From: Patescibacteria group bacterium
GTDB taxonomy: Bacteria > Patescibacteriota > Gracilibacteria > UBA1369 > PNNO01
DNA length: 64,000 nt
Direction of reading: 5' to 3'
NCBI GenBank assembly: GCA_042568575.1
Contig: JBHPIO010000002.1
Coordinates: 32,001 to 96,000, forward strand
A program made the translations under genes and the position numbers. Shown one piece after another: positions 31,946 through 40,016 of the stretch (position 1 is its first letter; the number at the start of each line of letters is the position of its first letter). The notes beneath the pieces were generated by a model that had not been told where the DNA came from, made no database searches, and saw only the letters and a program-made list of their open reading frames with translations.

Positions 31946-32020
31946 TTGTATAGTATGTTATGCTTTCTTGCCACGGATGGTAAGAAAACAGCAATAAATA
32001 AAACTAAGTAAAGCTATTGC

Positions 32021-32138
32021 ACCTAACGTTCGCAAACTATACGAACTTTGACAGTGATATAATACGCCAAAGGCGAAACACTGGCAAAGTTGGGTGAAGC
32101 GAGTGAAAGGAGCGGAACCAAATAGTTTGCTGTTGTAC
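32021..32138 (-). repeat. attC-like site 1 (118 bp)
   Basis: Plus strand ACCTAAC...GTTGTAC; stems GCAAACTAT/ATAGTTTGC and AACTTTG/CAAAGTT; arm GGTGAAGC..GCGGAACC. Confidence 0.88.
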
Positions 32139-32151
32139 GATGTACCCGCGA

Positions 32152-32427
32152 TTATTTTTTTGAATTTAATAGCTTTTTAATTAGATATGTCCAAACAATA
32201 AAGATTATTGAACCATAAATAATTGAGTTTAATGCAATATATATTGGATTGATGCTTAAGTTGTTTTTTCCACATAAACACCAGTCTATATATAGAGGGA
32301 AGGGAAGGCCATATGCTTTCGTTGTACAGAATTCAAAAAAGTCATTTCTGAAATATAGGGTAGGTAAACTGACCAATAAACCCAAAAAAAGAAATAGAAT
32401 GATTTTAATAATGATATTTTTTTTCAA
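32152..32427 (-). CDS. cassette ORF: small membrane protein
   Basis: 91 aa, TTG start, YGLPFP; fills the space between sites 1 and 2. Confidence 0.65.
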   Translation of the reverse strand: MKKNIIIKIILFLFLGLLVSLPTLYFRNDFFEFCTTKAYGLPFPLYIDWCLCGKNNLSINPIYIALNSIIYGSIIFIVWTYLIKKLLNSKK

Positions 32428-32462
32428 AATTTATTATTTAGTGAATGATAAGTGGGTATGTC

Positions 32463-32565
32463 ACACAACGTTCGGCGCATATACAAAGTTTACATATAGC
32501 GTAGCGGAATGTAAATTTGGGTGGAGCGACCAAAGGGAGCGGAACTGAATATACGCCTGTTAGCT
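32463..32565 (-). repeat. attC-like site 2 (103 bp)
   Basis: ACACAAC...GTTAGCT; GGCGCATAT/ATATACGCC stem; nearly identical to site 9. Confidence 0.88.
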
Positions 32566-32588
32566 GAAGTAATTAAAACAAATTATTA

Positions 32589-32996
32589 TTACTTTGACCA
32601 ATCTTGTGTTTGCCGTTGGCGCATATCAATACTGATCTGTTTCGCTTCTTGTAAATAATGTGGTCTTATCCAGTCAGTATGTTCATCTTTAGAGATTTGA
32701 ACTATACTTCTACCCCCGTAACCAAAACTCTCATCAGGTCGACAGAAGCCAATTACAGTAACTTTATCCCCAAGTTGTATATCTCCCATAAAACATTTTC
32801 TTTCACCATGAGTTATTAATGTCGCGGGCATTCCAATATCAATATGAGGCATCATTTTACCTCTTAAACCAATAATTTTATCGCCTTTATATACAGCTAT
32901 ATCGTATCCATCGATTTGGTGACCTTCAATTCTACGCTCGCAAATACCTTGATCTTCTTGAGGAGTATCTAAATCTTCTCCTTTAAATGTTTCCAT
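32589..32996 (-). CDS. cassette ORF: hypothetical protein
   Basis: 135 aa; has its own consensus promoter. Confidence 0.7.
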   Translation of the reverse strand: METFKGEDLDTPQEDQGICERRIEGHQIDGYDIAVYKGDKIIGLRGKMMPHIDIGMPATLITHGERKCFMGDIQLGDKVTVIGFCRPDESFGYGGRSIVQISKDEHTDWIRPHYLQEAKQISIDMRQRQTQDWSK

Positions 32997-33024
32997 ATTT
33001 AAGGATTAAATTACAAAGGAATTA

Positions 33025-33053
33025 ATTATAAAATAAAATAACAAAAATGTCAA
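33025..33053 (-). promoter_or_regulatory. cassette-internal sigma70 promoter
   Basis: Minus strand TTGACA-17-TATAAT, perfect consensus. Confidence 0.8.
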
Positions 33054-33078
33054 TACCTGCTTAAACATTAATTATTTC

Positions 33079-33213
33079 AGCTAACGTTCGGCGTATATAC
33101 AAAGTTAGCCTGACGAGTGACGGTGATATAATATTCTAATCACCGGAACGAGGAAAGGCTAATTTGGGTGGAGCGACTAAAAAGGAGCGGAACTGAATAT
33201 ACGCCTGTTGTGC
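33079..33213 (-). repeat. attC-like site 3 (135 bp)
   Basis: AGCTAAC...GTTGTGC; GGCGTATAT/ATATACGCC stem. Confidence 0.88.
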
Positions 33214-33230
33214 GATGTGGCAAAATTTGC

Positions 33231-33464
33231 TTATTCCTGTTCCGCTTCCACTCTACGTATATGGACCATGGCTAAACCATTGATCGCCTCTTCAATTTTT
33301 GAAATCACCACCTTAGAACCTTCTTGCCTGTCAGGACCAACGAACAGCGGAAGTACTTCCCCTTGTTCGAATACGCCTTCACTAAATCCTATCGTAACTT
33401 CGCCTTTTTTATCTAATTCATCAAGCTCTTGGCTTTCAAGCCTTACTAGTGAAGTTTTTCCCAT
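33231..33464 (-). CDS. cassette ORF: small acidic hypothetical protein
   Basis: 77 aa; promoter TTGTGC-17-TATAAT whose -35 overlaps the site 4 core. Confidence 0.65.
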   Translation of the reverse strand: MGKTSLVRLESQELDELDKKGEVTIGFSEGVFEQGEVLPLFVGPDRQEGSKVVISKIEEAINGLAMVHIRRVEAEQE

Positions 33465-33517
33465 GTTGCAATTTTGTTAATAAAACAATAGTACATTATA
33501 GCAAATTTTGACATTTT

Positions 33518-33665
33518 GCACAACGTCCGCGGCTTGTACGAAGTTGCCGACGAGCGAGATGGTATAATTTTAAACCATCAAAGCGAGGAAGGCAATTTGG
33601 GTGAAGGCTTTCGGCTGTGCGAAGCCAGTCCGAAAAAGCCTGAACCGGACAAGCCGCTGTTGTAC
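33518..33665 (-). repeat. attC-like site 4 (148 bp)
   Basis: GCACAAC...GTTGTAC; GCGGCTTGT/ACAAGCCGC stem; long second arm shared with site 11. Confidence 0.88.
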
Positions 33666-33681
33666 GATGTAGCGAAAATTA

Positions 33682-33945
33682 TTAAGAAGTTTTGCTTGGT
33701 TTCATCCATTTAATATAACCTCTTAAATACAGAAAAAATAAAACTATGGAAGTTACACCATTTGCTATACTTCCTATTTGAAAGCTAAATATAAAACCGA
33801 CTATTCCTGATATCATTCCTACGACGAAACCAATTTTTTTCTTGTCTCCAAGAAGAAAAATTCCTGCAAAAACCGTTAACGTGACTATCCAATCTACGCC
33901 ATAATACTGGAAAGCATAATGTTTTATTTGTTCCAGAATTCCCAT
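33682..33945 (-). CDS. cassette ORF: 3-TM PnuC/SemiSWEET-like small membrane protein
   Basis: 87 aa; YYGVDW...KKKIGF...RGYIKW. Confidence 0.65.
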   Translation of the reverse strand: MGILEQIKHYAFQYYGVDWIVTLTVFAGIFLLGDKKKIGFVVGMISGIVGFIFSFQIGSIANGVTSIVLFFLYLRGYIKWMKPSKTS

Positions 33946-33984
33946 AGTTTTATTTTATATGAATAATGAAATTTTCGCTATTTC

Positions 33985-34102
33985 GTACAACGTCTGCAAA
34001 CTATACGAACTTTGACAGTGATATAATACGCCAAAGGCGGATCACTGGCAAAGTTGGGTGAAGCGAGTGAAAGGAGCGAAACCGAATAGTTTGCTGTTAT
34101 AT
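33985..34102 (-). repeat. attC-like site 5 (118 bp)
   Basis: GTACAAC...GTTATAT; nearly identical to site 1. Confidence 0.88.
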
Positions 34103-34125
34103 GATGTCGTAAATTCCCGACTCTA

Positions 34126-34563
34126 TTAATCTGATAATGTTTTAGAAAATTTTGTAGAAGCTTCTTGATAACCGAGACCTTTGTAGAAGTCGTGCGCCTC
34201 TGTTCGATCTTTTCTACTTGTGACTTCTATTTTAGTAGAGCCGACTTTTGCTGCCTCTTCTTCGAGCTTTTTTACTAATGTTTTCCCAATACCTTGTCTT
34301 CTGTATTTTTCTTTGACTATTAAAGTAATTATTCGAGCAGTTTTGCCAGTTTCGTATAAAAAGTTGGTGATTTGTAATTGAGCAACTCCTGCAATTTCTC
34401 CTTTGGTTTCAGCAATAATTAGAATTACTTCTGGATTGTCGGTTAGTGCCTCAATTTTGTTACGAGCAAAAGTCGGCGTGTTAGGATATCCAAATTCAAT
34501 TAATAATTCTGCTACGCCTTCTGCATCTTTAATTGTTGCTTCTCTGTAATTGATATCTTCCAT
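34126..34563 (-). CDS. cassette ORF: GNAT acetyltransferase
   Basis: LIVKEKYRRQGIGKTL and AHDFYKGLGY. Confidence 0.9.
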   Translation of the reverse strand: MEDINYREATIKDAEGVAELLIEFGYPNTPTFARNKIEALTDNPEVILIIAETKGEIAGVAQLQITNFLYETGKTARIITLIVKEKYRRQGIGKTLVKKLEEEAAKVGSTKIEVTSRKDRTEAHDFYKGLGYQEASTKFSKTLSD

Positions 34564-34583
34564 AAGATCGAATTTACGATTTC

Positions 34584-34699
34584 ATATAACGTCTAGCACT
34601 ATGCGATGTTTGGCGATGGTAAAATATCACGAAGTGATACCATCGCCAAATATAGGTGTAGCGACTGAAAGGAGCGGAACCGAATAGTGCTTGTTGTGC
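34584..34699 (-). repeat. attC-like site 6 (116 bp)
   Basis: ATATAAC...GTTGTGC; AGCACTAT/ATAGTGCT and TTTGGCGATGGTA/TACCATCGCCAAA stems. Confidence 0.88.
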
Positions 34700-34716
34700 G
34701 ATGTGTTGTGCCCGAC

Positions 34717-35157
34717 TTACTTAATCTTCTTTATGTAATGTACGATTACGTCGTCTTTTTTGAAACCTAAATTTTTGTGAAATTTCTGGCTATCAACGTT
34801 CCTTAACTCTGCGTCTGAGCCGAGCTCTTTGCATCCCTGTTTTTTGGCCCACTTTTCACCTTGTTCCACAAGCTCTTTGGCAACTCCTTGTTTTCTGTAT
34901 TTGGGCTTTACATAAATGCCTTCAACATAGCCGACTGGACTAGATGATGAACCTTGGACATAATCGTTGCGAAGCGAAAGATTGATGAAGCCCAAATACT
35001 CACCCTTTTCATTTTGGGCCAAAAAGTTTGTGTATCTATCTGACTTTGAAAGTGCCTGAAATTCTTTTTTGAGTGTTTTTTTAGCGTGTGGCCAAAGAGC
35101 GAGGCCCATTGATAGCCACTCATTAAAGTTGTCTTCAGAAATTTCACAAAAATTCAT
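34717..35157 (-). CDS. cassette ORF: aminoglycoside 6'-N-acetyltransferase AAC(6')-I-like GNAT
   Basis: ALWP, SLRNDYVQGSSSSPVGYVEGIYV, GCKELGSDA and SQKFHKNLGF; ATG at 35157. Confidence 0.82.
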   Translation of the reverse strand: MNFCEISEDNFNEWLSMGLALWPHAKKTLKKEFQALSKSDRYTNFLAQNEKGEYLGFINLSLRNDYVQGSSSSPVGYVEGIYVKPKYRKQGVAKELVEQGEKWAKKQGCKELGSDAELRNVDSQKFHKNLGFKKDDVIVHYIKKIK

Positions 35158-35186
35158 AGTATTGATGATTAAGGGCACAACATTTC

Positions 35187-35304
35187 GTACAACGTTCGCA
35201 AACTATACGAACTTGCGACAGGTGTAGAATAGCCGAAGGCGGACACCTGAGCAAGTTGGGTGAAGCGAGTGAAAGGAGCGGAACCGAATAGTTTGCTGTT
35301 AGGC
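35187..35304 (-). repeat. attC-like site 7 (118 bp)
   Basis: GTACAAC...GTTAGGC; same family as sites 1 and 5. Confidence 0.88.
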
Positions 35305-35312
35305 GATGTTAA

Positions 35313-35543
35313 TTATTTTTTCCATTTTGCATATGCCCTAGCATTCAATGCTATAAGTATTATATTTAAAATTACACCAGGCCATATATGACCCATATAA
35401 TTTACAGCTATCCATGCGATGTTACCAACAGTGTATATAATAAATGAATATCTTTTTTTGCTACCAACAAGGAATAGAAAAATAAGTGAACCTGCCATCC
35501 CAATCCAATCTAGTCCGTAATAATTTCCCAATATTTCATTCAT
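35313..35543 (-). CDS. cassette ORF: 3-TM PnuC/SemiSWEET-like small membrane protein (76 aa)
   Basis: Likely start MNEILGNYYGLDW; the longer track ORF runs through att site 8. Similar to 33682..33945. Confidence 0.7.
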   Translation of the reverse strand: MNEILGNYYGLDWIGMAGSLIFLFLVGSKKRYSFIIYTVGNIAWIAVNYMGHIWPGVILNIILIALNARAYAKWKK

Positions 35544-35561
35544 ATAAAAATAATTAATGTT

Positions 35562-35689
35562 GCCTAACGGCCATGAATAACTGAAGTTTGGTGGCGGTAT
35601 AATTTGGAGCGGAGCGACATACCACCGCCAAATTTGGGAGAACGAACGAAGCAAAGCGGAGTGAGTGAACCAGTTATTCATTGTTATGT
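35562..35689 (-). repeat. attC-like site 8 (128 bp, divergent)
   Basis: GCCTAAC...GTTATGT; ATGAATAACTG/CAGTTATTCAT stem. Confidence 0.82.
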
Positions 35690-35704
35690 GATGTGACAAT
35701 AGGG

Positions 35705-36343
35705 TCACTTTGTTAAATGCTCAATCGCTTTTTTCAGTTGTCCGCCAAAATCGTTGTCCATGTTGAGAGCTTTTAACTTGTACTTCTTTGCTTCTTTGTC
35801 AAAAAATTGTCCATAGTAGTTGATCATTTCCGCGATCTTGTTGAGAGTTTCTTTTTCTTTTGTTTTACGAAGAATCCAGTCGTTTGGAGTTGAACTTTTC
35901 TTAAAGTCACGAACCATTTTTTCAACATCAGACTTAAAGAGAAAAAGAACGCAGAAATGTTTACGTCCGTATTTTTTAATTAGCCGAGCTGCAAGTTGTG
36001 GCGTTACATGGTAGCCCTCGACAATATAATCATTGCCATCAGTAATTTCGCAGACGGAAAACATATCTATTGCGTCATAGCTAGACTTGGCCTGCTTAAT
36101 GTAATTATTAGCAATCTGCTTTGGAGTATTGAGTGAATATGTTTCGTCATTAGTTTTGCCCTTTTGAGCATTATGTGGATAGAGTTTATCCATTTCCGCT
36201 TTAGAAGCATATTTTGAAACATATTCACGCGCTACAACTTGCAGCGTATCAGAAGCAACCCACTGAATGCCGAGCTTCTTGGACAATTTTTTGGCAAGTG
36301 TGGTTTTACCACATTTTGGCGGACCGCCGATTAAATAGATCAT
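35705..36343 (-). CDS. cassette ORF: P-loop kinase (2-phosphoglycerate kinase / AAA_33-like)
   Basis: LIGGPPKCGKTT Walker A; YIVEG. Confidence 0.8.
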   Translation of the reverse strand: MIYLIGGPPKCGKTTLAKKLSKKLGIQWVASDTLQVVAREYVSKYASKAEMDKLYPHNAQKGKTNDETYSLNTPKQIANNYIKQAKSSYDAIDMFSVCEITDGNDYIVEGYHVTPQLAARLIKKYGRKHFCVLFLFKSDVEKMVRDFKKSSTPNDWILRKTKEKETLNKIAEMINYYGQFFDKEAKKYKLKALNMDNDFGGQLKKAIEHLTK

Positions 36344-36376
36344 AGTTTTATTTTAGCAAGACCCTATTGTTATTTC

Positions 36377-36477
36377 ATATAACGTTCGGCGCATATACAA
36401 AGTTTACATGCAGCGTAGCGGAATGTAAATTTGGGTGGAGCGACGAAGGAGCGGAACTGAATATACGCCTGTTATAT
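36377..36477 (-). repeat. attC-like site 9 (101 bp)
   Basis: ATATAAC...GTTATAT; nearly identical to site 2. Confidence 0.88.
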
Positions 36478-36493
36478 GAAGCACATTTTTTCG

Positions 36494-36549
36494 TTTGGGG
36501 GCGGCGCAGAGGGGATGGGGGTGAATGCGCCGCCCCCAAACACCTTTTT
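36494..36549 (+). terminator. strong GC hairpin / plus-strand terminator inside the inverted cassette
   Basis: 15-bp stem TTTGGGGGCGGCGCA/TGCGCCGCCCCCAAA followed by CACCTTTTT. Confidence 0.6.
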
Positions 36550-36590
36550 CTTGTTTTACCTATCTGTGATAAGATTGAAAAGCGTTTTGC

Positions 36591-36619
36591 TTGACAAAAC
36601 AATTCTATTTATTTATAAT
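36591..36619 (+). promoter_or_regulatory. cassette-internal sigma70 promoter
   Basis: TTGACA-17-TATAAT, perfect consensus. Confidence 0.8.
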
Positions 36620-36650
36620 TCGATACCATTTACTTTTTAACCGTTTTATA

Positions 36651-37121
36651 ATGGAAACACAACAAGGAAATTCTGCCGAACAATTAGAAGGAAAATCCAC
36701 TCAGGAGCTCTTGGATGCACTATGCGAGGTTCAAAAAATCGAACCTATATTACTAGATCGAGGTCGTGCTTTTTTGAGAGATGTTTTGAGTAAAGAGGAA
36801 AATTTCCCTACAGATAGATTAAATGACTGTCGCGTAAGAGTCGAAGTAAATGACGGTGGTGGTCTCGTTGTTAGAGTGCCGGTTAATCGATTTGAGGTTG
36901 ATGGTAGTACTTTAGATGCTCATCCACTTAAACTTGAAATGAAGGATCAATGGAGTAATTTGCCCGGAGTTGCTCGTGTGGAGACTGATGGTAGTATGAA
37001 TAGTGGAATAATGAATTTAGATGTTTATCTTCAATCCGATCAATTACCTGAGCAAGATTCATCGCAAGCAGTTGAAGAAGTGCAGGAGGTTGTAGGAAAA
37101 GGTCTTAGTCAAAGTGTATAG
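36651..37121 (+). CDS. cassette ORF in inverted orientation: acidic hypothetical protein
   Basis: METQQGNS... (156 aa) downstream of the promoter; the track's TTG start is the -35 box. Confidence 0.72.
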   Translation: METQQGNSAEQLEGKSTQELLDALCEVQKIEPILLDRGRAFLRDVLSKEENFPTDRLNDCRVRVEVNDGGGLVVRVPVNRFEVDGSTLDAHPLKLEMKDQWSNLPGVARVETDGSMNSGIMNLDVYLQSDQLPEQDSSQAVEEVQEVVGKGLSQSV

Positions 37122-37142
37122 TTTCAATGGTTTAATAATAGA

Positions 37143-37175
37143 GATCGGGATTATTTTAATAACTCCGATCTTTTT
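37143..37175 (+). terminator. intrinsic terminator of the inverted cassette gene
   Basis: GATCGGGATTATT/AATAACTCCGATC followed by a T-run. Confidence 0.55.
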
Positions 37176-37216
37176 ATTATGCCCCCCTCTATCAATAAAG
37201 GGAAAAAATGTATTGC

Positions 37217-37339
37217 ATATAACGTTTCGGCATATACGATGTTTGCCAGTGGTATAATACCGCGAAGCGGTTACCACTGGCAAATATGAGCGAAACGACG
37301 ACTGAAAGGAGGAGTGTAGCCGTATATGCCGTGTTAAGT
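37217..37339 (-). repeat. attC-like site 10 (123 bp)
   Basis: ATATAAC...GTTAAGT; CGGCATATACG/CGTATATGCCG and TTTGCCAGTGGTA/TACCACTGGCAAA stems. Confidence 0.88.
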
Positions 37340-37349
37340 GATGTAAATT

Positions 37350-37973
37350 TTATTTTTTCTTTGCTAATACCCACCAATGATATTCGTTATCGCCTGGCTG
37401 TCCTTCATATTCGCTTTCTGTGATTTCAAAACCAGCCTGAGCAATCATTGCCTTATATTTTTCAGGTTCATAATTGCTCCATGCCATTGGTGCTCCGACA
37501 AAATCTTTTTCTATACTTACTTCACTACTTGTACCCAATGTTACTAAAATAACCCCATTATTCTCTAACAAATTATGCATTTTATCAAACAAGGCTTGAT
37601 GTTCTTCGCGCGGAATATGAAAAATAGAGTAAAAGGCGATGATTGCGTGGAAACGCTTGCCGCCAAAATCCGTCTTTGAAAAATCACCTTCAATAAAAGT
37701 TGCATCTGGTACATTTTTCTTCGCTTCGACAATATGATTGGAGGCAAAATCTATGCCGGTTACTTCAAAGCCCTTTTCAACAAGGTACTTGTCGAAAGGG
37801 ATTCCAATACCACAACCCAAATCAAGGACTTTGGCGGCCTTTGGCAAGAGAACTGCCAGGCGATTCAGATATTTCTTTTCCATTTCATTAGGGTCTGAAC
37901 TTACGCGGAAATGTCCAGCGTAGTCGCCTTGTTCATAACCTTCTTTAACGATTTTACGAATATCATTGGTCAT
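37350..37973 (-). CDS. cassette ORF: class I SAM-dependent methyltransferase
   Basis: VLDLGCGIG, VTGIDFA and FYSIFHIP. Confidence 0.9.
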   Translation of the reverse strand: MTNDIRKIVKEGYEQGDYAGHFRVSSDPNEMEKKYLNRLAVLLPKAAKVLDLGCGIGIPFDKYLVEKGFEVTGIDFASNHIVEAKKNVPDATFIEGDFSKTDFGGKRFHAIIAFYSIFHIPREEHQALFDKMHNLLENNGVILVTLGTSSEVSIEKDFVGAPMAWSNYEPEKYKAMIAQAGFEITESEYEGQPGDNEYHWWVLAKKK

Positions 37974-37992
37974 AAAAAATAAAATTTATTTC

Positions 37993-38136
37993 ACTTAACG
38001 GTTGCAAACTATACGAACTTTTTCGCGATGGTATAATAGCGCTTTAGCGCAACCATTGCAAAAAAAGTTGGGTGAGGGCTTTTGGCTGTGCGAAGCCAGC
38101 CGAAAAAAGGCCGAACCGTATAGTTTGCTGTTGTGC
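37993..38136 (-). repeat. attC-like site 11 (144 bp)
   Basis: ACTTAAC...GTTGTGC; GCAAACTATACG/CGTATAGTTTGC stem. Confidence 0.88.
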
Positions 38137-38207
38137 GCTGTTGCGAAATCAAAATTTACCCGAAGGGTAAATAGAAATTTTGGCGACTAAATTATTTTGT
38201 CTAATTC

Positions 38208-38438
38208 TTATTTTTTCGAGGCCATAAGTTCAGTAACTGTTAGTCTTGCTCTAACTAAATTCCGAATTGTTTCTTCTTCAGGCGTTAGTGTTCCTAAGTC
38301 AGCTTTATGGGCGAGAATACTTTGTATGGCACCGGGGAGTTGATCTTCTCTGCCATCAGCAGTTTCTCTGGCTTTTCCATAACCATCTTTGTACCATCCA
38401 AAATTGCCAGATTCGGTTGGACCACCTACAGTAGCCAT
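38208..38438 (-). CDS. first (attI-proximal) cassette ORF: small hypothetical protein
   Basis: 76 aa; candidate promoter TTGCAT-16-TAAAAT (38494-38467). Confidence 0.6.
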   Translation of the reverse strand: MATVGGPTESGNFGWYKDGYGKARETADGREDQLPGAIQSILAHKADLGTLTPEEETIRNLVRARLTVTELMASKK

Positions 38439-38535
38439 ATAATGTTTGATTATGAATTAAGACTATATTTTAGCAGAAGAATATTAATATGCAATATTTG
38501 TCGCCAAAATTTCTGTTCTTTTTTTTCGCAATGGC

Positions 38536-38560
38536 GTACAACTCAGCACTAAGCGTAGTT
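38536..38560 (-). other. attI-like site
   Basis: Core GTACAAC (GTTGTAC on minus) whose left flank is complementary to the right flank of site 11; no branched hairpin follows; about 90 bp from the integrase start. Confidence 0.7.
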
Positions 38561-38634
38561 TACTATAGTTTAGAAGAATTTTAGAGTTTTTTTACAATGT
38601 TTTGGTACGTTCTGTGCGTATTTTAAGTTTTTTT

Positions 38635-39456
38635 ATGAGCCTTAAAAGCCAGTTACTGCTTAGGATGGAGCGCGAGATGATTATTAAGAATTATAGCCCC
38701 AGGACACAGAAAACCTATATGTACTGTATTGAGAAGTATTTGGAGTTTGATTTTGGGGCTGTGCGCAGGTGTGGTTTGGATAAAATTCGGGAATTTCTTG
38801 TGTTGAAGCAGGAAAGTGGCGTTGGTCCTGTTATGAGGAATTTGTATCTTTGTGCCATTAAGTTTTTCTATCGAAGCGCACTGAATCGCCGTAAAACAAT
38901 ACCTATTCCGTATGCTAAACGACCAAAAAGCACGCCTATAACGCTAACGCGCGTAGAGGTACTTCAGATGCTGTCCTACATTAACAATTACAAGCATAAA
39001 TTGATCGTGGCATTGGCTTATGGAGCGGGTTTGAGACTCAGTGAGGTTACAAGTCTGAAAGTTTATGACATTCATTTACTTGATAAGACAATTCTTGTTA
39101 GAAGAGGGAAGGGCGCGAAACGGCGATATACGATTATTCCGGATAAACTATGGTGGAAACTCCGTCTTTATGTGAAAAACAGGGATGCGCACAAGTATGT
39201 TTTTGAGAGTAATAGGGGAGGAAAGTTACATTCACGCACTGTTCAAAAGATTTTCAAAAAAGCTCTCAAGAAAGCCGGCATTGAAAAACAAGCCACGTTT
39301 CATTCGCTCAGGCATAGTTTTGCTACGCATTTGCTCGAAAATGGAACAAATCTGCGATATGTGCAGGCGTTGCTTGGGCATTCAAGTATTAGAACAACTC
39401 AAATTTATACTCATGTTGATGATTGCGCAATTAAGACTGTCAAAAGCCCACTTTAA
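38635..39456 (+). CDS. tyrosine recombinase / integrase (273 aa) with an N-terminal SAM-like domain, lacking the IntI-specific insertion
   Basis: NYSPRTQKTY; catalytic R (GLRLSE), K (GKGAK), HSLRH, LGH and Y (TQIY) are all present. Confidence 0.93.
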   Translation: MSLKSQLLLRMEREMIIKNYSPRTQKTYMYCIEKYLEFDFGAVRRCGLDKIREFLVLKQESGVGPVMRNLYLCAIKFFYRSALNRRKTIPIPYAKRPKSTPITLTRVEVLQMLSYINNYKHKLIVALAYGAGLRLSEVTSLKVYDIHLLDKTILVRRGKGAKRRYTIIPDKLWWKLRLYVKNRDAHKYVFESNRGGKLHSRTVQKIFKKALKKAGIEKQATFHSLRHSFATHLLENGTNLRYVQALLGHSSIRTTQIYTHVDDCAIKTVKSPL

Positions 39457-39521: not shown

Positions 39522-40016
39522 ATGACAAGACGTCGCCCATCTGAGGGAGAAAAAGACCTGATTCAACGAGGATTAGTTGTATTAAAAGAAATCTATGAGC
39601 ATCCTGAAAGTGCTAATGTCCATAGCGCGAGAGGTAGAATACTATCAAGAGTATTACTTGTAATGAATGGTCAGACAGTAGGTGATTTATACAGATTGAT
39701 GGTTGTTGCAAGTTATCAGCCTACTGATGCGGACGCAATTTTAACAGCTTTAAATAGCAGTACTGGATTGCGCGAATTTGAACAATATTTGTTGGATTGC
39801 GATTCTGACGATCTGCGAGCGACTATTTTAAAAACATTTCCAACTCAAGAATCAAAGCAAGCGGCATTGGAATATTTAACTGCTGATGAAGATGGCAGAA
39901 TTAGATTTCACCACAAAGGATACCTTGTTACAGAAGAACAACTTGCATACTTAAACGAACTCTTGAGTTCAAGAGATTTACAAGAAGTACTTGAAATTCT
40001 ATACAAACAAATTTAA
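39522..40016 (+). CDS. hypothetical protein
   Basis: 164-aa ORF; TTGACA-16-TATAAA upstream. Confidence 0.65.
   Translation: MTRRRPSEGEKDLIQRGLVVLKEIYEHPESANVHSARGRILSRVLLVMNGQTVGDLYRLMVVASYQPTDADAILTALNSSTGLREFEQYLLDCDSDDLRATILKTFPTQESKQAALEYLTADEDGRIRFHHKGYLVTEEQLAYLNELLSSRDLQEVLEILYKQI

Follow-up and report, generated by a model that had tools for sequence, protein, structure and literature searches.

Can an integron-type array of gene cassettes be served by a tyrosine recombinase that does not carry the segment by which integron integrases are recognized? The question is raised by a locus in a 64,000-nt stretch of DNA (positions 32,001–96,000 of contig JBHPIO010000002.1, assembly GCA_042568575.1; hereafter the window) from a tiny, uncultivated Candidate Phyla Radiation (CPR) bacterium; the labels of its nearest public relatives read Patescibacteria, Peribacteria or Peregrinibacteria. 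Its genome comprises 1.2 Mb in 31 contigs (81.8% complete, 0.19% contamination), with the window in contig C12. At window positions 32021–39456, hairpin-forming repeats alternate with single open reading frames (ORFs) and end beside a divergently oriented integrase gene. Judged from its sequence, this locus is very likely a chromosomal cassette platform of the sedentary, integron type in a Patescibacteria (CPR) bacterium, a probably active system whose integrase and attC sites are both non-canonical. Although it would work as an integron does, by the current definition it is not one, as tests for the IntI domain and for the canonical attC architecture found neither.

The layout is that of an integron. 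Eleven related hairpin sites of 101–148 nt, each of the form xxxxAAC...GTTxxxx, occupy positions 32021–38136, and a single ORF lies in each interval between successive sites; ten of the 11 ORFs are on the minus strand, the exception being 36591–37121 on the plus strand. The array ends at a lone core, GTACAAC (38536–38542), and the integrase and the cassettes run away from it in opposite directions, the arrangement seen for intI and its cassettes in integrons. The integrase gene (38602–39456, plus strand; Pfam Phage_integrase, 2e-44, and SAM_4) starts 59 nt from this core if TTG 38602 is used and 92 nt from it if ATG 38635 is used; the ATG is the probable start, and the alignments to the relatives, which begin at query residues 11–17, agree with it. 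Both the coordinates and the ORFs agree with the first-pass annotation of this DNA, which had described 11 such repeats alternating with single ORFs and a lone core about 90 bp from a divergent integrase.

The nature of the repeats can be told from their ends. In integrons, crossover occurs at G|TT, so that the last bases of an attC site belong to the next cassette and it is the ends of a cassette, not the ends of a site, that are complementary. The window follows this rule: the four variable bases beside the GTT of one site complement those beside the AAC of the next with 4 mismatches in 40 positions, whereas the two ends of the same site show 27 mismatches in 44, and none of 100000 permutations gave a value as low (p<1e-5). 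Counted by cassette and by site, respectively, the mismatches were 7/64 versus 38/68 in the relative L008 and 6/40 versus 18/44 in L006, and a canonical control (L129, an attC array upstream of a protein scoring 482 bits on the IntI model TIGR02249) gave 4/32 versus 14/36, its polarity with respect to the IntI being the same. Counts from L128 were left aside, as the pattern used there produced duplicate matches that overlap. The four variable bases of the lone core show a single mismatch with the attC of the adjoining cassette, and in an alignment of six genomes the lone AAC has a conserved flank on its right and a variable one on its left, which is the pattern expected of an attI/cassette junction. 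Taken together, the boundary signature and the one-sided flank conservation show the repeats to be recombination sites of the attC kind, with the crossover at AAC/GTT, and mark 38536–38601 as an attI. To this attI-like region, which has no assigned strand, belong the core at 38536–38542 and, after it, a conserved stretch that includes three TTTAG repeats and a palindrome of the ATATGC-N5-GCATAT type. The palindrome (38605–38625), placed between attI and the likely start of the integrase, is conserved across six genomes (the window and L005–L009) and could be a candidate operator for a repressor of the integrase.

The sites form a family that is specific to the array. A covariance model (CM) made from the 11 window sites, searched against the whole 1.2-Mb genome at E<=0.1, returned exactly 11 matches, all in the array and none outside it, so that the sites are not a dispersed repeat; a gathering-threshold Rfam scan of the whole window gave no match, Rfam having no family for attC. 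The predicted fold consists of an outer AAC/GTT box, a stem of 9–11 bp and two inner arms of variable length. Over 40 sites from five genomes, in an alignment fitted to the CM and therefore favouring structure somewhat, 93.5% of the cells were paired and 20 of 25 pairs had changed on both sides, and in the main stem pairing reached 98.6%, and 10 of the 11 pairs there co-varied; none of 500 shuffles reached the observed values, and slid controls gave 27–42% pairing. The same geometry, AAC-G-(3-nt bulge)-stem facing stem-T-GTT, was found in all 39 complete sites of the five genomes. The G and T beside the AAC/GTT box are invariant, the bulge reads TCC, TTC, GCC, TCT, TTT or GTT, and an extra (extrahelical) base in the adjoining stem was present in 0 of the 39. 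This bears out the earlier description of the sites as having that geometry in place of the canonical symmetric spacer and L box. The plus-strand fold is more stable than the minus-strand fold in 11/11 window sites, and the invariant G.T would read as an A.C mismatch on the opposite strand.

The canonical attC sites examined are built differently. On the integrase-sense strand (L128, L130), they read AAC, about 5 nt, a stem, the loop, the returning stem with one extra G, 4–5 nt and GTT, a spacer and extra G also seen in L129; in the window sites, compared by inspection, 4 nt (the G and the 3-nt bulge) face 1 nt (the T), and there is no extrahelical base. An AACG on the same strand is common to both. 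In an alignment of 18 canonical sites (from L128, L129 and L130), the two site families did not match in structure. The CM of the window sites found no match in six 12-kb stretches upstream of canonical IntI, three of which show attC arrays by repeat search, and none near XerA or other short recombinases.

Shorter forms occur in three diverged relatives (L012 6459–8223, L011 2122–8033 and L145 2260–4825), in which sites of 56–86 nt have the same AAC-G-NNN-stem...stem-T-GTT geometry. Their sequences suggest a minimal site. Across the phylum the inner arms vary in length, from 56 to ~200 nt, and as the geometry is kept even in sites of 56–58 nt, these arms act like the variable terminal structure of attC. 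The integrase genes of the same three relatives contain in-frame TGA, apparently read as sense. The sites also carry promoter-like motifs. Of 40 sites from five genomes, 33 have a TGnTATAAT-like (extended −10) motif on the integrase-sense strand in a fixed position, nt 29–46 when the site is complete (in the window, for example, at 32052–32062, 33557–33567, 37249–37259 and 38029–38039; also in L005, L006, L008 and L009). A promoter scan of the cassette-coding strand found TTGCCA-17/18-TATTAT in sites R1, R5 and R10 and TTGCAA in R11, an element that would point into the next cassette. Such predicted elements might possibly serve in cassette expression, in antisense control or in priming on a single-stranded cassette.

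Sites and integrase also go together across genomes. Among the closest relatives, all loci with enough upstream DNA have an array on the same side and strand; the CM finds 17 matches in L008 and 11 in L006, while in L005 and L009 the start of the contig truncates the sites. The complete chromosome behind L008 has 31 CM matches, all of them in one 24.5-kb stretch and the nearest of them 757 nt from the integrase. In a class sample of 151 genomes, searched at E<=1e-3 for sites and E<=1e-40 for integrase homologs, 43 genomes had sites and 45 had a homolog: both were present in 27, the integrase only in 18, sites only in 16 and neither in 90, giving an odds ratio of 8.4; as the genomes are kin, the p-value assumes more independence than they have. 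For 12 of the 27, the sites share contig and strand with the integrase and are upstream of it. In other classes of the phylum they were on the expected side and strand at 8/8 loci with enough upstream DNA; two loci with less than 260 nt upstream gave no site, and one locus also showed a weak match on the opposite strand. The integrase itself was found in 40 of the 301 genomes of the phylum sample, three of the homologs containing in-frame TAG or TAA stops. The tie between these repeats and this integrase clade, for which the first-pass annotation had proposed such a CM as a check, thus holds in the close relatives, in the class sample and beyond it.

Contig breaks account for part of the genomes with only one of the two components, as do short sites that have diverged. 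A geometry scan of three integrase-only genomes with long contigs gave, respectively, three short sites on the expected strand, one site and one doubtful match, and in several other genomes positive for both, a contig begins no more than a few hundred bases from the integrase, which would be expected of arrays that interrupt assemblies. Contigs start 100–950 nt upstream of the integrase in L005, L007, L009, L010, L013, G010, G044, G070, G074, G086, G090, G094 and G144. As it seems that assemblies break off at the array, arrays are probably under-represented in metagenome-assembled genomes (MAGs).

These data also bear on the simplest alternative, namely that the repeats are intergenic elements of the repetitive extragenic palindrome (REP) or miniature inverted-repeat transposable element (MITE) kind, or RNA terminators or regulators, and that the recombinase is a housekeeping XerA-type resolvase lying next to them by chance. 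The promoter-like motifs within the sites would fit this explanation, as would the best NCBIfam match of the integrase, the XerA model NF040815, at 220.8 bits against a cut-off of 220. It is nevertheless highly improbable in view of the boundary signature, the lack of copies outside the array both in the host genome and in the complete chromosome behind L008, the silence of Rfam, and the linkage on one side and strand in 12 class genomes and at 8/8 loci of other classes. The integrase, moreover, falls outside the XerA clade and is present in only 30% (class) and 13% (phylum) of the sampled genomes, and the host has a separate Xer-like gene, L001, that does group with XerA and the CPR Xer proteins.

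The integrase has the full set of catalytic residues and a short interval between two of them. Its catalytic R, K, HxxR, H and Y residues align with those of XerA and VchIntIA and are invariant in 18 members of its clade. In the multiple alignment, the catalytic Lys and the HxxR box are 64 residues apart, versus 104–106 in five canonical IntI; the distance is 64–73 in nine other short relatives (64 in six of them) and 68–72 in the XerA, XerC and XerD rows. This difference means that the IntI-specific segment is absent from the window integrase, as had been claimed from an estimated spacing of about 65 residues. The sequence alignment to VchIntIA in the PDB falls into two pieces, with residues 200–240 of VchIntIA skipped, and an AlphaFold model (pLDDT 87.3) has no extra helix between Lys and HxxR. 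With the IntI models the integrase scored 195.2 bits on TIGR02249, matched in two pieces (cut-off 265), and 129.9 bits on NF011946 (cut-off 435), so it does not score as a normal IntI; a normal score was what the first-pass annotation had named as making this a known system. Proteins above the IntI cut-off were found in 0 of the 151 class genomes, while in an integron-bearing class 57 of 101 genomes had one.

Could the locus still be an ordinary integron whose IntI and attC only look unusual? Its layout is identical to that of an integron, IntI1 is 33.6% identical to the window integrase over 95% of the query, and the best PDB fold match of the AlphaFold model is VchIntIA (2a3v, E 3.9e-16, TMq 0.69), ahead of XerA. 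Set against the spacing of 64 versus 104–106 residues, the split and low-scoring match to TIGR02249, the residues of VchIntIA that find no counterpart, the complete lack of proteins above the IntI cut-off in the class sample and the failure of the CM in all six stretches upstream of canonical IntI, this explanation is scarcely credible.

Where the enzyme belongs was examined in a maximum-likelihood tree of 65 rows, from which the insertion columns had been dropped. The array-linked CPR integrases form a clade of 21 (support 98/97), which lies inside a 100/100 clade together with 16 canonical IntI (100/99) and four other short proteins. The window integrase is thus outside the IntI clade itself yet within the clade shared with it, and its own clade is separate from the Thermoplasmata XerA, from the CPR Xer-like group and from E. 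coli XerC and XerD; a tree with these proteins had been called for by the first-pass annotation. The second recombinase of the host genome, the Xer-like L001, groups with XerA and the CPR Xer-like proteins. The branching order within the IntI-related clade is weakly supported (43/35 and 63/86), so that the tree does not decide between an ancestral absence of the insertion and its loss. As judged from this phylogeny, the integrase is a sister-level lineage to IntI, and the system is an integron variant, not an independent invention.

Other recombinases were met in the course of this comparison. The short ones nearest to IntI in the tree (L023 and L032) showed no cassette-like repeat array in their 10-kb flanks and no CM matches. 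On a Clostridium tagluense plasmid (L104, NZ_CP077608.1), the gene of a short IntI-related recombinase lies directly upstream of, and overlaps, an IS91-family transposase gene; its context indicates that this is a different use of an insertion-less IntI relative. A further recombinase with four in-frame TGA codons (L124, G133:C1:468916-469794; frame of 392 aa) matches IntI model positions 20–307 with 131.9 bits and groups with the CPR Xer-like clade in the tree.

Whether the platform is still in use can be judged from its neighbourhood and contents. The V-ATPase genes beside the integrase are 91–97% identical in four relatives (L005, L007, L008 and L009), which places the platform at a conserved chromosomal position, and the integrase is 63–83% identical to those of the relatives. 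When the cassette ORFs of three arrays were compared, however, there was nothing in common except one 36% match and spurious ORFs overlapping the repeats, so cassette content is far from invariant among relatives, contrary to what the first-pass annotation had listed as a possible objection. In L006 one cassette is present twice, at two positions, with 100% identity. These comparisons are indirect evidence that gain, loss and movement of cassettes are ongoing. They also make it very unlikely that the locus is a decayed integron in which I2 (the helix region missing from the short enzyme) was lost, the integrase became inactive and the array was left as a frozen relic. The absence of I2 and the in-frame TAG or TAA stops in three phylum homologs would agree with decay, but the clade as a whole keeps both the 64-residue spacing and its catalytic residues, homologs are present in 45/151 class and 40/301 phylum genomes, the arrays of close relatives differ, L006 has its identical duplicated cassette, and the complementarity of cassette ends is intact.

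How such a platform might work can be outlined from these features. The recombinase would insert circular cassettes at attI, at the core GTACAA|C (38536–42), and excision would be an exchange between two attC sites at the AA|C (G|TT) triplet; that the reaction takes place at AA|C between attI and attC, or between attC and attC, is suggested by homology and by the boundary signature. The window integrase would be the catalyst. Its likely substrate is a folded single strand, to which the complementary cassette ends, the co-varying stems with free inner arms, the greater stability of the plus-strand fold in 11/11 sites and the invariant G.T all point. In canonical systems the ~40-residue IntI segment that is missing here, the I2 helix region, docks the extrahelical bases of attC; sites without an extrahelical base or a symmetric unpaired spacer match an enzyme without this region. 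Beside their AAC/GTT box lie the invariant G.T, the 3-nt bulge on one arm and a stem of 6–11 bp. The 3-nt bulge and the G.T may replace the extrahelical bases in choosing strand and orientation, a role proposed for them as the only conserved asymmetry in a system without I2 and extrahelical bases.

This outline departs from the accepted view. According to the integron literature summarized in PMC7790495, I2 is necessary for cassette capture, confers single-strand recombination and occurs in no other protein, and a 'lack of intermediates' is noted there. Several points, indeed, weigh against an active platform that recombines folded strands. Integrases without I2 reportedly fail to capture cassettes (Messier & Roy 2001, cited in PMC7790495), which means that activity here needs a different mode of recognition. 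In the class sample, 18 of the 45 integrase-positive genomes had no CM match and 16 genomes had sites but no integrase at E<=1e-40, the association statistics overstate independence among genomes that are kin, and the alignment behind the pair counts was fitted to the CM. Finally, support for a preference for one strand is weak: wobble pairs in the stems were G.T in 34 cases versus A.C in 21 (p=0.10), a bias that is not significant, which counts for a double-strand alternative.

In that alternative, the platform and the enzyme are the same but the exchange is of the Xer style, between double-stranded cores and on both strands, with the hairpins acting as inverted-repeat arms for protein binding. 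The Xer-like length of the enzyme and its lack of the I2 helix speak for it, given that I2 is what confers single-strand recombination (PMC7790495), as does the insignificant excess of G.T over A.C. On the other hand, complementarity of the cassette ends would be expected only from ends that pair with one another, co-variation extends over 11 pairs of the stems (98.6% paired) with inner arms as free in length as those of canonical attC, and the plus-strand fold is the more stable one in every window site, with a G.T that is invariant in 39/39 sites and would be an A.C mismatch on the other strand. Exchange between double-stranded cores is for these reasons rather unlikely. As for single-strand recombination, the boldest version of it can be put forward tentatively, as a possibility that falls well short of being probable: I2 would not be required for integron-type capture of folded single-strand cassettes, and the CPR lineage would represent either the ancestral state, as the missing I2-less intermediate, or another solution, in which the 3-nt bulge and the invariant G.T replace the extrahelical bases. 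Each attC would then also carry a conserved promoter-like hairpin, with TGnTATAAT on one strand and TTGCCA-17-TATTAT on the other, expressing the next cassette or priming second-strand synthesis of the excised cassette.

Comparison with known systems helps to place the locus. It is closest to the sedentary chromosomal integrons, of which the VchIntIA system is an example. Common to both are the divergent integrase–attI–array arrangement, cassettes of a single ORF with a site 3′ of it, a crossover that falls at AA|C / G|TT, complementarity of ends by cassette with the polarity of the canonical control, hairpins whose inner structure varies, large arrays, of at least 31 sites in one relative, and rapid turnover; unlike them, the window has an integrase without the IntI-specific insertion that remains below the cut-off of the IntI hidden Markov models. 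The archaeal integrons described by Ghaly et al. 2022 (PMC9668308) are similar in being integron-type arrays in MAGs of an unexpected lineage, but the archaeal IntIs, as presented there, have the IntI-specific additional domain and were found by IntegronFinder, whereas the window integrase is without this domain.

With XerA, XerC and XerD the enzyme shares its size, domain make-up and lack of I2, as well as the NF040815 score at the cut-off; unlike them, its clade is separate in the tree, is not universal in the lineage and is tied to a multi-cassette array with an attI instead of one dif site. Among the integrative mobile elements exploiting Xer (IMEX), the CTX phage provides a precedent for a Xer enzyme acting on a folded single-strand hairpin, as related in PMC7790495. 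Smyshlyaev et al. 2021 (PMC8138268) distinguished, among the simple tyrosine recombinases, a 'Cand' subgroup of Xer-related recombinases of candidate phyla and an 'integron-like' subgroup in which the insertion is 'not fully conserved'; for neither does the available part of that paper describe cassette arrays or sites. The list of phyla with integrons in the available text of a 2021 review (PMC8618304) does not include CPR, and a literature search that covered openly accessible papers, without their supplements, found no report that links integrons or attC either to CPR taxa or to an integrase without the insertion. The array is not a cluster of attC sites lacking an integron integrase (CALIN), which by definition has no integrase nearby, as its recombinase lies 59–92 nt from the attI core; it might nonetheless be given that label by standard tools in which the IntI domain is a requirement.

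The proposal from which this work started, a distinct cassette-capture system that standard integron models may miss, can now be stated more narrowly. Enzyme and sites are non-canonical, and the sites carry the boundary signature of cassettes, so that part stands; distinctness in the sense of a separate origin does not, as the enzyme is related to IntI and the system is hence an integron variant. The expectation concerning standard models holds for the IntI protein model TIGR02249, with its score below the cut-off, and the evidence is confined to this protein model.

The cassettes themselves carry a varied set of genes. By Pfam, their ORFs include two GNAT acetyltransferases, an S-adenosylmethionine (SAM) methyltransferase, a P-loop kinase-like protein and two half-size PnuC-like membrane proteins; four of the remaining ORFs have no Pfam family and one has only a weak DUF3021 match. 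All sites are given on the plus strand, and the ORFs on the minus strand unless stated otherwise. Counting from the integrase, cassette 1 consists of an ORF of 76 aa without a Pfam family (38208–38438) and site R11 (37993–38136; CM score 85.3 bits), and cassette 2 of the SAM-dependent methyltransferase (37350–37973; Methyltransf_25, 5e-16) and R10 (37217–37339; 100.7 bits). Cassette 3 holds the sole plus-strand ORF, without a Pfam family (36591–37121), and a site of the short form, R9 (36377–36477; 83.8 bits). The kinase-like ORF of cassette 4 (35705–36343; AAA_18) is followed by R8 (35562–35689; 66.1 bits), and cassette 5 pairs a half-size PnuC/nicotinamide mononucleotide (NMN)-transporter-like membrane protein of ~78 aa (35313–35549; PF04973 positions 110–175 of 175, E 0.0017) with R7 (35187–35304; 111.6 bits). 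The two acetyltransferases occupy cassette 6 (34717–35178; Acetyltransf_1, 7e-21), with R6 (34584–34699; 106.6 bits), and cassette 7 (34126–34563; Acetyltransf_1, 3e-20), with R5 (33985–34102; 121.5 bits).

Further out, cassette 8 encodes the second half-size PnuC-like membrane protein, of 87 aa (33682–33945; PF04973 positions 4–69 of 175, E 7.5e-6), ahead of R4 (33518–33665; 78.8 bits), and cassette 9 an ORF of 77 aa without a family (33231–33464) ahead of R3 (33079–33213; 102.3 bits). An ORF of 135 aa, likewise without a family (32589–32996), and the short-form site R2 (32463–32565; 83.9 bits) make up cassette 10, and at the distal end of the array cassette 11 combines a membrane protein of 91 aa with the weak DUF3021 match (32152–32427) and R1 (32021–32138; 121.2 bits). 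The two PnuC-like proteins (33682–33945 and 35313–35549, both on the minus strand) are 37% identical to each other and correspond to the N- and the C-terminal half of the family, respectively. Perfect TTGACA-17-TATAAT promoters were found at 36591–36619 (plus strand), before the only inverted ORF, that of cassette 3, and at 33053–33025 (minus strand), before the ORF of cassette 10 (32589–32996), which suggests that some cassettes bring their own promoter. On the other side of the integrase, an ORF of 164 aa without a Pfam family (39522–40016, plus strand) lies before V-ATPase subunit D. It was considered as an accessory factor and rejected, as it is missing from four syntenic relatives, in which the integrase adjoins the V-ATPase operon.

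The extra segment defines integron integrases and is held to be the innovation that permitted recombination of folded single strands (PMC7790495). Here a sister-level lineage without this segment is tied to arrays of fast turnover that bear the integron boundary signature, in a platform that is widespread within one bacterial phylum. If the platform is active, the origin of integrons would become directly testable with a natural I2-less enzyme and its own sites, and such platforms would be undercounted in surveys that make the IntI-specific domain a requirement. The reduced genomes of CPR/Patescibacteria are thought to depend on acquired functions; an active platform would mean that gene capture of the integron type reaches these bacteria as well.

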